DNA from: Escherichia phage vB_EcoP_EP32B
DNA: 64,000 nt
Reading direction: 5' to 3' (one strand)
Sequence record: OR544955
Numbering within the stretch: the stretch's first letter is position 1; the number at the start of each line of letters is the position of its first letter. The position numbers and the translations under genes were made by a program. The notes below the pieces were generated by a model that saw only the letters and a list, made by a program, of their open reading frames with translations, was not told where the DNA came from and did not search any database. This document shows positions 3,409-44,428 of the stretch, piece after piece.

Positions 3409-4029
3409 ATGTTTAAACGTAAATCTACTGCTGACCTCGCTGCTCAAATGGCTAAACTGAACGGTAACAAAGGTTTCTCTTCAGAAGATAAAGGCGAATG
3501 GAAGCTGAAACTCGACGCATCCGGTAATGGTCAAGCGGTAATTCGTTTCCTGCCGGCAAAAACAGATGACGCCATCTACACACGGCGATTATGACTCTTG
3601 TCCTGTATGTCAGTACATTAGTAAAAATGACCTGTACAATACCAACAAAAATGAATATTCTCAACTGAAACGTAAAACTTCTTATTGGGCTAATATTCTG
3701 GTTGTTAAAGACCCTCAAGCTCCAGATAACGAAGGTAAAGTATTCAAATACCGTTTTGGTAAAAAGATTTGGGACAAAATCAATGCAATGATTGCAGTTG
3801 ATACTGAAATGGGTGAAACTCCTGTTGATGTAACTTGGTTCTTGGTACTGCCGCTCTGGGCGGTGCAGCAGCTGCCGCAGCTTCTGTTGCAGATAAAGTT
3901 GCTTCTGACCTTGACGATTTTGATAAAGACATGGAAGCCTTTAGTTCTGCAAAAACTGAAGATGACTTCATGAGCTCTACCTCATCCTCTGATGATGGCG
4001 ACCTCGATGACCTGTTAGCTGGTCTATAA
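3409..4029 (+). pseudogene. 32: ssDNA-binding protein gene 32, interrupted by two frame-breaking lesions (about 621 bp versus ~906 bp expected)
   Basis: Frame 1 [36 protein letters not shown]...AVIRFLP matches T4 gp32 N-terminus then stops; frame 2 resumes at ...[21 protein letters not shown]...GETPVDVT (zinc-binding region); frame 1 again supplies the acidic C-terminus ...[12 protein letters not shown]. About 20 residues before THGDYD and most of the core after DVT are absent. Confidence 0.8.
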
Positions 4030-4035
4030 TAAATC

Positions 4036-4058
4036 GGGAGACTTCGGTCTCCCTTTTG
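4036..4058 (+). terminator. Intrinsic terminator after gene 32
   Basis: Perfect hairpin GGGAGAC-TTCG-GTCTCCC followed by TTTTG. Confidence 0.8.
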
Positions 4059-4084
4059 AGTATCTGTAAATTGCCAAAAAAGTT

Positions 4085-4114
4085 GTTTACTTCTTCCCTG
4101 GATGTATTAGTATA
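4085..4114 (+). promoter_or_regulatory. T4-type early promoter
   Basis: GTTTAC at 4085-4090, -10-like TATTAG/TAGTAT ~17 nt downstream. Confidence 0.5.
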
Positions 4115-4142
4115 GACATATCAACAACATGAGGAAATCAAA

Positions 4143-4535
4143 ATGGAAATCGGAAAATCTTATATCATTAACCCTTTATTTAAAGACGACTTTGTTCAAG
4201 AAGCACCACATAATAACGCTAAGATGTTAAAACTGATTGAACTCCATGGGCCTAGTTTTGTTGTAAACGGAATGGAACCTGATTATGATAGCGATACGTC
4301 AAACGTAGTAAGTGTAACTATGGAAGATGGTACTGTATGTTCTGCCGGTGGTGAAATTGAAACTTATTTTGAGATTTATCCTGACGAGTTCAAATACTTT
4401 ACTGAGGTAGATTTAGTAAAACCTCAACCTACTAACGAAGGTATAACTTTAGGTGTAACAAAAATCCATTGTATCGTAGATGAAACCAACGTCGACGAAA
4501 TCATCAAACTTTTGCAAAAAACTTTTAAAAAGTAG
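4143..4535 (+). CDS. Hypothetical early protein (frd.x position)
   Basis: 130-aa ORF on the sense strand of the early array; early promoter at 4085-4114. Confidence 0.5.
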   Translation: MEIGKSYIINPLFKDDFVQEAPHNNAKMLKLIELHGPSFVVNGMEPDYDSDTSNVVSVTMEDGTVCSAGGEIETYFEIYPDEFKYFTEVDLVKPQPTNEGITLGVTKIHCIVDETNVDEIIKLLQKTFKK

Positions 4536-4598
4536 TGTATAACAAGATAGGGCTATGTTATAGTAGTCCTATCAAATAAAAGTGAAGAGGAGAATAAA

Positions 4599-4781
4599 AT
4601 GAGATTGCAACGCCAGAGCATCAAAGATTCTGAAGTTAGAGGTAAATGGTACTTTAACATAGTTGGTAAAGACGCTGAACTCCTTGAACAAGCTGAAGAA
4701 GCTTTACGTGAAATGGGTTGGAACGAAGAATGTGATGGATGTCCACTCTACGAAGATGGTAAATTAAAATGCTTAAATTAG
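4599..4781 (+). CDS. Hypothetical small early protein (frd.x position)
   Basis: 60-aa ORF preceded by GAGGAG RBS; Cys-rich C-terminus. Confidence 0.45.
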
Positions 4782-41370: not shown

Positions 41371-41398
41371 AACCAAAAATGGGAGACCGAAGTCTCCC
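41371..41398 (-). terminator. Intrinsic terminator after gene 23 (inverted copy of the gene 32 terminator hairpin)
   Basis: Minus strand reads GGGAGACTTCGGTCTCCC followed by ATTTTTGGTTTT. Confidence 0.8.
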
Positions 41399-41422
41399 AA
41401 AATAAGATTTAATCAATTAAGA

Positions 41423-42951
41423 TTAGATGCCTTTTACATATACACGGCGGAAGTAAGCGTTCTTACCAAGGCTGTTCAGGATAGACGGCATACCGGACTG
41501 GATGCGAGCACCTGGAGCCTGCAGGGAACTTTCAGCAAACGGGTTAACACCGATACCGTAACGAGTTTTGAAGCCCATTACCGGCTGGAAGTTCTTAGGA
41601 TCAGAACCACGCAGTGGGGTAAGTGCAACGTAAGGAGCATAGTAAATACCTGCATCCATTTCGTTAGCGCCTTTGTAACCAACGGTGAAGTAATCCTGTT
41701 TAGCATACTGGTCGATGTATACGCGGTATTTACCACCAAGTACACCGGCAAATACAGACTTAGTAGTGTCGGTATTAAAACCAGAAGCCAGACCCTGTGC
41801 AGCGTAAGAAATACCAGTATCAACTGAAGCCAGTACGTTAACTACGTTACGGGAAGCGATAATGAAGTTACCTTCACCACGACCGGTTTGACGAGCAATT
41901 TCAACTGCTTCTTTATCAATCTGGAACAACAGAGATTTAAAGCTTTCACCGGCCCAACGAGCACCACGGATATCAATCGGGTCCTGGAAGTCAAATACAC
42001 CAGCTTTAGAACCCGGAGTCAGGGTCATACCGGATTTACCAACCTGTGCTGAGTAGTTAATCCAATCAACAACTTCACGGTTGATTTCTAGCATAATTTC
42101 TGTAGCCAGAATACCACTCAGTTCAGCATCAGCATCCATACCGTGTACTGCACGGAGGTCTTGTGCTAATTCGATAGAGTAAGCAGCTTTCAGCTGGCGA
42201 GATTTAGCTTCGATAACTTGTTTATCGATACGGAAGCCCATTTCATTCCATGGGTTATCGGTAGAACCGTTGAAACCTTCCTGAAGTTCAGCGATAGAAG
42301 TAGCCATACCTTCAGCGATTTCTACCAGTGCACCAGCTTCCATTTGTTTCTTAACTTCGGCATCTAATTTAGCAGCATCGGTCGCATCGATTGTTACTTG
42401 AACAGAAGCTTGCAGATATACAGTACCAGTTTCCTGGAAGAAGTGAGTGCCAGAGCTGGGAATTTCTTAGCAGCACCCTGACCAGAGAACATCGCATCTG
42501 GGGCATACATCGGATGGAAAGCTTCTTTAGCGCCAGCAGCGATAGGGTCTTTACCATATACTGCACGGAGAGCAAATACCTGACCGGTCGGGCTGTTCAT
42601 AGGCTGAACACCACAAATATCAAAAGCGATCAGATTAGGAATAGCACGACGAACCATACCCATAACTGCTGGCCCAATTTGGGTTACTGCACCAGAGGTT
42701 TGACCTGCTGCGATGTTCTGAGCATTATAACCATGGTCACCACCAATTTCAGCTTCGGTCAAGAAAGAACCAAATGCCTGAGCGATTTTCTCGTCTTTAT
42801 ATTCAGGGGATACTTCGAAATCTTTTTCCTGGTTTTCGAAGATTTTAGCGATAATAGCCTGCTTGCTATTAGCGATTTCCGGCAGGCCTTCACCTTCCAG
42901 CAGTTCTTTCCATTTGTCTACGAGCTGAGCTTTAGTTTTGATAGTAGTCAT
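41423..42951 (-). pseudogene. 23: Major capsid protein gene 23, broken by a frameshifting deletion near 42447
   Basis: ORF 42394..42951 = MTTIKTKAQLVDKWKELLEGEGLPEIANSKQAIIAKIFENQEK...AAKKFPALA then out of frame; ORF 41423..42343 continues MEAGALVEIAEGMATSIAELQEGF...YFRRVYVKGI. Both match T4 gp23 nearly residue for residue; about 12 residues after FPALA are missing. Confidence 0.9.
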
Positions 42952-42968
42952 TTGTGTTAACCTTTAAA

Positions 42969-43781
42969 TTAGAAACGAGATGCGACTTTCGCATATAAAC
43001 TTACATTAGAATTCTGTTCTACCTGAGTTGTGGTAGTGTCAACTGCTTCGGCAACAAAATTAAGACCGGCAGCGTCATTGTCAACTGTATTTATACTTTC
43101 GGTAATAGCGGCTTCTTCTTTAGTAGAACCTTTAACCATTTCTACAATAGCAGTTAACTTAGTACCAAATGCGTCAGAATAATCCATACCTTCAACCAGG
43201 CCAATAACTTTTTCTTTCTGAGATTCAGTCAGGTCTTTTACGCTTTCATTAATAGCGGTTTCACGCTGAACGTAATTGATATATGCATCACGTTTGGTAA
43301 CTTCTTCGAACAAACGAGCGGTTTCTTCTTTATGTTCGGCCAGCTCTTCTTCCATTTCTGCTACAACATCTACAGATTCTTCTGGAACAACAACGTTATG
43401 TTCAACAAACAGTTCTTTCAGACCACCAAGCATGGATTCGAACAAATCAGCTTTAATGCCTTTATCAACTGCGATTTGGTTTTCTGCGAGCCATTCTTTT
43501 GCAAGATGGTCTAGGAATTTAGAAGCTTGTTCAGCCAATTTTTTATCAGCTTTCTCTTCAGCATCTTCTTTAGCCTTTTCAACTTCTTCTTCGGCCTTTT
43601 CGGCGATGGCTTTGATATGAGATTCAGCCAGTTTGACTGCTTCCTGCTTAACGGTGGCTTCGAATACAGTGCTGAAATTAGCTTTAACGTCCGGAGACAG
43701 TTCTACTGATTCGAAAACACTATTAAGAGCAACTGAAGTCTCGATGTTCTGAGCTTCTTTCAAAAGTTGTTCTTTGATCAT
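42969..43781 (-). CDS. 22: Prohead core scaffold protein gp22
   Basis: 270 aa (T4 269); Glu/Ala/Lys-rich coiled-coil composition; late promoter upstream. Confidence 0.85.
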   Translation of the reverse strand: MIKEQLLKEAQNIETSVALNSVFESVELSPDVKANFSTVFEATVKQEAVKLAESHIKAIAEKAEEEVEKAKEDAEEKADKKLAEQASKFLDHLAKEWLAENQIAVDKGIKADLFESMLGGLKELFVEHNVVVPEESVDVVAEMEEELAEHKEETARLFEEVTKRDAYINYVQRETAINESVKDLTESQKEKVIGLVEGMDYSDAFGTKLTAIVEMVKGSTKEEAAITESINTVDNDAAGLNFVAEAVDTTTTQVEQNSNVSLYAKVASRF

Positions 43782-43811
43782 TTTAGTGTCCTGTGGTTTA
43801 GATTACATTAT

Positions 43812-43819
43812 TATTTATA
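43812..43819 (-). promoter_or_regulatory. Late promoter for gene 22
   Basis: Minus-strand TATAAATA overlapping the 3' end of gene 21, ~31 nt upstream of gene 22. Confidence 0.65.
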
Positions 43820-44428
43820 ATGCTTTTAAACTCTCTGCGAGAGCTTTAAATGCTTCATCAGCACTGTTTTTGGTGATTTCCACCGAATTTTCTGATTCTG
43901 ATATTTGTTTAGGAGTAACCCAAGCATCTGGAGCAGAAGGTCCCCACACGGCATCTACGCCGACGGTTAATTTAAATCCTTCGTTCACGATACGGTACCC
44001 TTTATTGGTGTCGGTTAAAGAACCAAGACCACGAGAGGAAACACCTGGAATCCAACCAGCTCGTATATTAGCAGCTAATTTATCGCCGGGACCATGGTCG
44101 CCTTCAATAATTCTAGCGCGTCCATATACATCGTTTCCTTTCCACCACATATCTTCAATAATGATAGCGGCTTGCATAGGGTCAACATTTGCGCGAGGTG
44201 GATGATTTAATTCTCCAAGGGCTTGTTTGGTTGCGCTTTTTCCAAAACGCGTTTAGGATATAAACGTTTATTTCGGTTAACAACCTCTGCCTGAAGAAAA
44301 ATACCTTCTATATAAAGCCCTGGTTTTAAGCCAGAATCTTTTCCATCATGAGATTCCAACATTGGAACGCCATCAATAATCTCACCGGGTTGACCCCAAG
44401 TTTCAATAAGTAACTCGGGTTTATTCAT
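43815..44428 (-). pseudogene. 21: Prohead protease gene 21, broken by a frameshifting deletion near 44230-44236
   Basis: ORF 44207..44428 = [31 protein letters not shown]...RLYPKRVLEKA then out of frame; ORF 43815..44177 = MQAAIIIEDMWWKGNDVYGRARIIEGDHGPGDKLAANIRAGWIPGVSSRGLGS... Correct frame resumes at ...TKQALGELNHPPRANVDPMQA; about 10 residues missing. Confidence 0.85.

Follow-up and report, generated by a model that had tools for sequence, protein, structure and literature searches.

Genome Identity and Affected Genes

The window, i.e., the whole 64-kb stretch of DNA that was analysed, belongs to a Mosigvirus (RB69-like T-even) genome and is colinear throughout, upon alignment to NC_041863.1, with the E. 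coli O157 typing phage 3 (TP3, KP869101/NC_041863). Positions 1-3572 of the window correspond to positions 1-3572 of TP3 with zero offset, and the arbitrary origin of the TP3 record, located in the middle of gene 34, is common to the window. Position 11002 of L003 corresponds to base 1 of the window and falls inside the gp34 CDS of ST0 (8154-12029). Besides the alignment to NC_041863.1, the deletions described below were cross-checked against ST0, UGJNEcP1, EP32a and WFbE185.

A previous sequence-only reading had proposed that six core genes, namely 32, td, nrdB, 30, 21 and 23, each carry one short out-of-frame deletion while everything else is intact. Alignment to TP3 sized every gap and bears out the frame-breaking lesions of these six genes, which consist of deletions devoid of inserted sequence, no single one of them being a multiple of three in length. 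The fragments of open reading frames found in the window agree with the truncation figures computed for the six genes. Similarly, the long genes considered as intact are full length, i.e., nrdA (751 aa), gene 17 (611 aa), gene 18 (660 aa), gene 29 (590 aa) and gene 10 (601 aa). Contrary to the premise, however, the damage is not restricted to six genes: a further eight deletions of this type occur in nine other genes, giving a total of 15 genes, and gene 32 harbours two deletions instead of one (Table 1).

Table 1. Affected genes and deletion junctions along the window (a junction is given by the two window positions that it separates).
Feature	Position	Junction	Strand	Stretch lost	Product or remark
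Gene 34, window start inside	1..1031		-		base 1 of the window is base 1 of the TP3 record
Gene 32 (ssDNA-binding protein), remnant	3409..4029	3572/3573; 3837/3838	+	68 nt, residues 55-78; 214 nt, residues 166-237	stop after 61 of 299 aa
FDG79_gp007 3' end and nearly all of gp008		4761/4762	+	321 nt	upstream of frd
td (thymidylate synthase), remnant	5353..6196	5865/5866	+	17 nt, residues 172-177	stop after 172 of 286 aa
nrdB, remnant	8848..9944	9356/9357	+	79 nt, residues 170-196	stop after 173 of 391 aa
Spanin-like gene (FDG79_gp017 homologue)		12128/12129	+	58 nt	product ends after 12 aa
rIII 3' half and downstream spacer		17951/17952	+	247 nt versus TP3	
FDG79_gp038 homologue		20197/20198	+	34 nt	
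Gene 30 (DNA ligase), remnant	21841..23261	22124/22125	+	73 nt, residues 95-119	stop after 112 of 497 aa
FDG79_gp043 homologue		23289/23290	+	102 nt, in frame	34 of 62 codons gone
alt, near 3' end		25447/25448	+	15 nt, in frame	
FDG79_gp055 homologue		33840/33841	+	50 nt	downstream of uvsY
Gene 23 (major capsid protein), remnant	41423..42951	42448/42449	-	34 nt, residues 168-179	stop after 185 of 520 aa
Gene 21 (prohead protease), remnant	43815..44428	44235/44236	-	28 nt, residues 65-74	stop after 73 of 213 aa
Gene 14 (neck protein)		53224/53225	-	36 nt, in frame	beyond the range of the sequence-only reading

Structural Features of the Deletions

Compared to TP3, the window displays 15 clean deletions of 15-321 nt distributed across these 15 genes, and its insertions never exceed 3 nt. 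When all indels of at least 4 nt versus TP3 are counted, 0 insertions and 16 deletions occur in the window, versus 6 and 6, 7 and 4, 2 and 1, and 1 and 0, respectively, in four natural relatives; the loss-only pattern is far from chance, the natural relatives being balanced. Eleven of the 15 deletions have a length that is not a multiple of three, for a chance expectation of 10. The junctions are blunt and free of any cassette, scar or site sequences, and exhibit hardly any microhomology (no shared base in 12 of the 15, one base in two, and two bases in one). In gene 32, the two losses sum to 282 nt, a multiple of three, yet a stop codon occurs between them; both of the lost stretches are located inside the gp32 core of the solved structures (8gme, 2a1k, 1gpc). 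Because genes 32, 30, 21 and 23 are truncated, no viable phage could be produced from the sequence as written.

None of the deletions was seen in the five related genomes examined, and the junction sequences were absent from every collection searched. The junction of gene 23 found no match in all three contig collections searched, and the intact TP3 sequence spanning the left edge of the stretch lost from this gene occurs in 3 IMG/VR contigs. The 15 nt missing from alt are kept in 146 of 146 matching phage records, and the 36 nt missing from gene 14 in the top phage records among the matches listed.

Apart from the deletions, the sequence looks like that of a healthy genome submitted to normal selection. 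Codon changes versus TP3 comprise 829 synonymous and 150 non-synonymous ones, 830 of the 1006 substitutions occur at codon position 3, and all the indels of 1-6 nt are either intergenic or in frame. In the broken genes, the synonymous bias persists on either side of the lesions, e.g., 27 synonymous versus 4 non-synonymous changes in nrdB, 12 versus 1 in gene 30 and 10 versus 1 in gene 23, which argues against old lesions and is still compatible with very recent ones.

Location of the Deletions on Hypervariable Patches

The lost stretches match short patches at which Mosigvirus genomes possess alleles 25-50% divergent from each other, between flanks 95-99% identical. Depending on the gene, TP3 is 63% identical, with indels, to ST0/UGJNEcP1 over the patch located upstream of frd, 75% identical to the same two phages over the second stretch of gene 32, 56% identical to ST0 over the nrdB patch, and 71% identical to EP32a/WFbE185 over the gene 23 patch. 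Among the relatives, identity amounts to 62-74% and 74-76% for the patches of the gp038 and gp055 homologues, respectively, and the stretch lost from td contains 4 mismatches over its 17 positions. The edges of the deletions often coincide with the first and last mismatch of an alternative allele, as occurs with the UGJNEcP1 allele of the gp043 homologue, and the stretch lost from gene 14 is the exact patch that distinguishes EP32a/WFbE185 from TP3, with 14 mismatches over its 36 positions. The rIII deletion, which amounts to 142 nt when measured versus ST0/UGJNEcP1, has its right edge where a segment of about 105 nt private to TP3 ends. As a whole, 33% of the positions are variable among the four other genomes within the 15 lost stretches versus 3.2% outside, a variability equalled by none of 100,000 random placements, and 10 of the 15 stretches count among the 3% most variable windows of their length.

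A ceiling of divergence exists with respect to TP3. The window never exceeds 9 mismatches per 50 nt relative to TP3, so that no patch of at least 10 mismatches per 50 nt occurs over the 64 kb, whereas 1-6 of such patches are found versus each of the four other genomes, even those that are closer overall, and 2-12 separate natural genomes from TP3. Variable patches at which the window possesses the TP3 allele are retained, and the removal thus depends on the allele of the sample rather than on variability alone; the same observation excludes a trimming of the variable columns of a multiple alignment. At distances of up to 30 nt from the junctions, 60 of the 69 variable sites display the TP3 allele, the opposite of the predicted enrichment in non-TP3 alleles. 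This excess fits the trimming of edges by local alignment, a post hoc explanation; two sample-specific bases remain to the right of junction 33840, at distances of 3 and 8 nt, and would probably have been clipped as well by a common local aligner.

Origin of the Deletions

Judging from these comparisons, the broken genes very probably correspond to gaps in a consensus built on a TP3-like backbone, from which unalignable stretches were omitted, and would thus reflect data quality rather than biology. The source would be a genuine, viable Mosigvirus, the consensus of which would have been written in the coordinates of KP869101/NC_041863 or a near-identical genome. Locally, the sampled phage would possess a mosaic allele diverging by some 20-50% from the backbone, or an indel-bearing allele, and the reads or contigs covering such divergent patches would have failed to align. 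The unaligned backbone positions would then have been left out, neither the true sequence nor N being written, and such an omission would leave blunt deletions blind to the reading frame, the gene and its essentiality. Both the software step responsible for the dropped stretches and the integrity of the genes in the real phage are what we infer from the sequence. Four or five lost stretches, those of gene 30, gene 21, alt, the spanin-like gene and the first deletion of gene 32, are only mildly variable in the compared genomes, and the consensus-gap reading has to assume that the sample carries there an allele absent from these genomes.

The pattern resembles the reference bias, or dropout, of reference-guided consensus genomes: backbone coordinates are kept, changes are restricted to losses with blunt junctions, the losses occur where divergence prevents the sample from being aligned, and local divergence is capped versus the backbone. 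Candidates for the exact step would comprise the skipping of zero-coverage positions, a deletion-plus-insertion call that loses its insertion, and the joining of contigs. An assembly or consensus artefact was among the three origins envisaged, with no preference stated, by the sequence-only reading and is supported as such; its cause is not random low coverage or collapse, low-coverage and collapsed regions being the examples given by that reading, the gaps tracking divergent patches. The lost stretches also lie on the mosaic hypervariable patches of T-even phages, which include gene-conversion tracts at homing-endonuclease sites, genes 32 and nrdB being among them (PMC2988022). Real mosaics, however, substitute a functional allele of similar length, whereas no replacement occurs here.

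Another computational artefact, either a de novo assembly from a stock in which two related Mosigvirus strains were mixed or some other post-processing that removes unalignable blocks, appears rather unlikely. In the mixed-stock version, the assembly graph would be interrupted by divergent bubbles, whose short contigs would be discarded, and the shared contigs would be ordered along TP3 and linked with no N between them. Such artefacts equally predict blunt junctions at the first and last mismatch of alternative alleles, loss-only changes and the overlap with hypervariable patches, but the divergence cap specific to TP3, absent versus the four other genomes, finds no natural account among them, and the first base common with TP3 requires that TP3 was used for the ordering too. 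The helper-dependent genome and the engineered lesions also envisaged by the sequence-only reading both find no support: small hypothetical genes are involved too, the frame is disregarded, microhomology is lacking and the positions follow natural allele boundaries. Deliberate lesions, whether in an engineered multi-knockout phage or planted at random in silico, are very improbable: the clean junctions without scar or insert and the several classical essential genes affected would suit them, but small genes of hypothetical or accessory nature make up 9 of the 15 affected, three deletions are tiny and in frame, no cassette, scar or site sequence is present, and natural allele boundaries are not what an engineer would select, while the coincidence with hypervariable patches, reached by 0 of 100,000 placements, rules out a random planting.

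Defective genomes do occur in high-multiplicity phage stocks, and the sequence as written, with genes 32, 30, 21 and 23 truncated, is indeed non-viable. Real deletions, in a defective genome maintained by a helper phage or in a subpopulation of the stock, nevertheless seem hardly credible, since a single molecule would need fifteen independent lesions with junctions lacking microhomology, lengths blind to the frame, substitutions still almost all synonymous in the broken genes and junction sequences absent from all the collections. In addition, we know of no biological process that targets lesions to divergence patches relative to one reference record, as would be needed to place them exactly on such patches under the TP3 divergence cap. 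It is equally doubtful in the extreme that the deletions are physically present in a non-viable Mosigvirus riding in a mixed infection, the heterologous patches being excised with precision during recombination with a co-infecting strain, for example by the processing of mismatched heteroduplex. The classical rII deletions of T4, which originate by illegitimate recombination at short direct repeats, are tolerated solely where the region is dispensable. The present deletions resemble them in removing tens to hundreds of nt without insert, but they are mostly repeat-free and destroy essential genes; a spontaneous origin of this type agrees neither with the 12 junctions without any shared base nor with the truncation of genes 32, 30, 21 and 23 to 61, 112, 73 and 185 aa, respectively. 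Damage by homing endonucleases followed by imprecise repair, involving SegG for gene 32, I-TevI for td and MobE/I-TevIII for nrdB, has very little likelihood as well. The three genes do figure in the list of T4 homing-endonuclease targets (PMC2988022, Table 1), and gene conversion near the target sites may account for the existence of divergent patches. They represent, however, only 3 of the 15 affected genes, homing repair proceeds by copying the donor sequence, with no frame-breaking gap left behind (PMC2988022), and the TP3-specific divergence ceiling is left unexplained. No endonuclease gene or intron adjoins them in the window or in TP3: no open reading frame occurs between genes 59 and 32 or between nrdA and nrdB in the window and the TP3 annotation, and td is uninterrupted in the TP3 annotation and, apart from its 17-nt gap, in the window, where it contains no intron. 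The homing hint given by the sequence-only reading would account, at best, for the existence of some of the divergent patches, those of genes 32 and nrdB.

Significance for Mosigvirus Genomics

The deletion pattern is almost certainly not a real biological feature, as far as can be judged from the sequence, and chiefly represents a quality flag on the record. Annotated at face value, the record would lead to false pseudogenes for gp32, the ligase, the prohead protease and the major capsid protein, and would skew the analyses of gene content, core genome and recombination in Mosigvirus. The combination of all-deletion changes, a ceiling of divergence versus one reference and gaps located on hypervariable patches offers a reusable diagnostic, independent of reads, for the recognition of a reference-projected consensus. 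With respect to the sampled phage itself, the gaps would represent a map of the sites at which it possesses mosaic alleles distinct from those of TP3.

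Close relatives and the catalogue of deletions

The window derives from an RB69-like T-even phage (genus Mosigvirus). Among phage records it best matches TP3, the E. coli O157 typing phage 3 (KP869101/NC_041863), to which window 3000-23000 is 97.9% identical and window 39500-64000 98.5% identical. Exact searches with the NrdA and Hoc proteins of the window gave no hit. The two sequences are colinear along the whole 64 kb, TP3 1-3572 being aligned with window 1-3572 at zero offset. The first base of the window, within gene 34 for the long tail fibre (window 1-1031, minus strand; ST0 8154-12029), is also base 1 of the TP3 record, so that both sequences start at the same arbitrary mid-gene position. 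The record of pEB20 (OP114733) begins at another position, and typing phage 7 is a Tequatrovirus. Relative to EP32a and WFbE185, the late-gene half (window 39000-64000) shows about 1.1-1.2% substitutions, fewer than the 1.7% counted relative to TP3 (whole window). The phage sampled therefore combines known Mosigvirus lineages as a mosaic. The window also has a gene for an aroF-like DAHP synthase of 330 residues (window 15456-16448), which RB69-like phages carry as an auxiliary metabolic gene; it shows only 2 substitutions with respect to TP3, its neighbours showing far more.

The sequence-only reading had proposed that alignment to a close T-even genome would size the gaps, and alignment of the window to TP3 positions 1-68000 yielded 15 gaps of 15-321 nt. 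All differences of at least 15 nt are deletions in the window. Taking indels of at least 4 nt, the window shows 0 insertions and 16 deletions relative to TP3; natural relatives of TP3 are balanced, with insertions/deletions of 6/6, 7/4, 2/1 and 1/0. The gap length is not a multiple of three in 11 cases, for a chance expectation of 10, and 12 of the 15 junctions share zero bases of microhomology. The first 25.5 kb, corresponding to the early-gene region, hold 11 of the 15 gaps (binomial P = 0.009), and the density of variable sites among the relatives is also higher in this region (4.1% vs 2.6%).

Deletions of the window relative to TP3 (gp numbers are those of TP3 genes, FDG79_gpNNN)
Gene affected	Flanking window bases	Missing (nt)
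gene 32	3572/3573	68
gene 32	3837/3838	214
FDG79_gp007 + gp008	4761/4762	321
td	5865/5866	17
nrdB	9356/9357	79
spanin-like gp017	12128/12129	58
rIII + downstream spacer	17951/17952	247
gp038	20197/20198	34
gene 30	22124/22125	73
gp043	23289/23290	102
alt	25447/25448	15
gp055	33840/33841	50
gene 23	42448/42449	34
gene 21	44235/44236	28
gene 14	53224/53225	36

TP3 possesses all 15 missing stretches. Each stretch was also checked in two further genomes that extend over it, namely ST0 and UGJNEcP1 in the case of gaps 1-12, and EP32a and WFbE185 in the case of gaps 13-15. The 15 nt of alt are kept in 146 of 146 matching phage records and the 36 nt of gene 14 in the top phage records. The junction sequences of genes 32 and 23 found no match in the viral, metagenome and genome contig collections scanned, and the intact TP3 sequence across the left boundary of the gap in gene 23 occurs in 3 IMG/VR contigs.

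Consequences for the genes

Both the TP3 alignment and the truncated reading frames confirm that the six genes named in the sequence-only reading are truly broken. Read from their start codons, the products would stop after 61 of 299 (gene 32, ssDNA-binding protein), 172 of 286 (td, thymidylate synthase), 173 of 391 (nrdB), 112 of 497 (gene 30, ligase), 185 of 520 (gene 23, capsid) and 73 of 213 residues (gene 21, protease), in agreement with the ORF fragments of the window. The companion claim that all other genes were intact is wrong, since eight more deletions strike nine other genes, one of them beyond the range of that reading; the six lesions are present in the sequence as part of a set of 15.

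In gene 32, the missing stretches correspond to residues 55-78 and 166-237 of gp32, both located within the ssDNA-binding core of the solved structures; His64 and Cys77, two zinc ligands of T4 gp32, belong to the former. Over the latter (TP3 3906-4119), the TP3 protein is identical to the gp32 chain 8gme_A, presumably that of T4, and the DNA of ST0 and UGJNEcP1 differs by about 25% from that of TP3. This stretch looks like a mosaic patch within an essential gene.

Outside the gaps, 830 of the 1006 coding substitutions relative to TP3 fall at codon position 3, with 829 synonymous against 150 non-synonymous codon changes and 782 transitions against 224 transversions. This mostly synonymous pattern persists on either side of the lesion in every broken gene, and indels of 1-6 nt are without exception intergenic or in frame. 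With the 15 gaps set aside, the window resembles a sound natural genome of good sequence quality.

Gap position and sequence divergence

Among positions compared between TP3 and the four other genomes, 33% are variable within the missing stretches and 3.2% outside; the former value was never reached when segments of the same lengths were placed at random 100,000 times. Ten of the 15 stretches rank among the top 3% of same-length windows by variability. The gap edges often coincide with the first and last mismatch of an alternative allele, e.g., in gene 14 (36 nt), gp043 (102 nt), nrdB (79 nt), gene 32 (214 nt) and gp055 (50 nt), and the right end of the 247-nt gap at rIII coincides precisely with that of a stretch of about 105 nt specific to TP3. 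This stretch (TP3 18849-18953), located downstream of rIII, does not occur in ST0 and UGJNEcP1. Four or five stretches, namely the first of gene 32 and those of the spanin-like gene, alt, gene 30 and gene 21, vary little among the compared genomes, and for these it must be assumed that the allele of the sample is absent from those genomes. The predicted enrichment of the junction flanks in non-TP3 alleles was not found; the flanks are enriched for TP3 alleles. Of the 69 variable sites located 30 nt or less from a junction, 60 carry the TP3 allele, compared with 1125 of the other 1851. This enrichment is attributed, by an explanation made after the result, to trimming at the edges of local alignments.

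When ungapped 50-nt windows were scanned for strongly divergent patches (10 or more mismatches), the comparison with TP3 gave at most 9 mismatches and 0 such patches over 64 kb. Each of the other four genomes shows 1-6 such patches with the window, including EP32a and WFbE185, which are overall nearer to it than TP3, and natural genomes differ from TP3 by 2-12 patches, so that sequence is missing wherever strong divergence from TP3 was due. Variable patches in which the window shares the allele of TP3 are retained, which rules out a blanket trimming of the variable columns of a multiple alignment. Taken together, this ceiling and the retained patches point to a pairwise projection onto a TP3-like backbone.

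Origin of the gaps

The lesions are not a biological feature. They almost certainly reflect a computational artefact of some type, and the assembly or consensus artefact listed among the options of the sequence-only reading was correct in kind. More precisely, the window is likely to represent an existing, viable Mosigvirus whose consensus follows the coordinate system of a TP3-like reference; mosaic patches impossible to align would have been left out, presumably by a software step, and neither filled nor given as N. Such a projected consensus would account for the arbitrary start shared with TP3, the occurrence of deletions only, and the blunt junctions placed without regard to the frame. 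It would also explain why essential and other genes are hit alike, why the gaps coincide with hypervariable patches, why divergence from TP3 has a ceiling, and why the remainder shows a normal selection signature. Our literature search found no specific description of this exact artefact, and the 2015 typing-phage and 2025 Mosigvirus papers citing KP869101 both relied on de novo assemblies, with no pointer to a mapped consensus.

A mixed-strain de novo assembly, in which bubble contigs are discarded and the remainder is joined on TP3, would lead to a largely similar pattern but explains less readily a divergence ceiling specific to TP3. Random low-coverage gaps could fit a coverage model in size and number, but are rejected because the gap positions follow variability, and randomly planted or engineered deletions are ruled out by the same non-random position. 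A synthetic mutation of TP3 is likewise ruled out, the substitutions being overwhelmingly synonymous and transition-biased and the window partly nearer to EP32a than to TP3. Nothing specific favours engineered lesions, real deletions in a helper-dependent genome, or damage by homing endonucleases. With respect to the last, genes 32, td and nrdB, rightly recognized as homing loci from the sequence, are listed T4 targets of SegG, I-TevI and MobE/I-TevIII (PMC2988022, Table 1), but known targets make up no more than 3 of the 15 affected genes, neither an endonuclease gene nor an intron adjoins 32, td or nrdB in the window, and homing substitutes sequence and leaves no gaps. Gene conversion around homing sites may be one reason for the divergent patches in these three genes.

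Between its genes 33 and 59, UGJNEcP1 harbours a homing endonuclease gene of 684 nt (UGJNEcP1 12964-13647) that the window, TP3 and ST0 lack. In ST0 (42341-43510), the gp27 baseplate hub CDS spans 771 nt and is followed by about 400 nt without annotation, compared to 1173 nt for the TP3 gene; the difference may reflect a frameshift or sequencing error in the public record.

The 15 gaps represent a warning about this record, and the analysis provides a read-free test to detect reference-projected consensus genomes.
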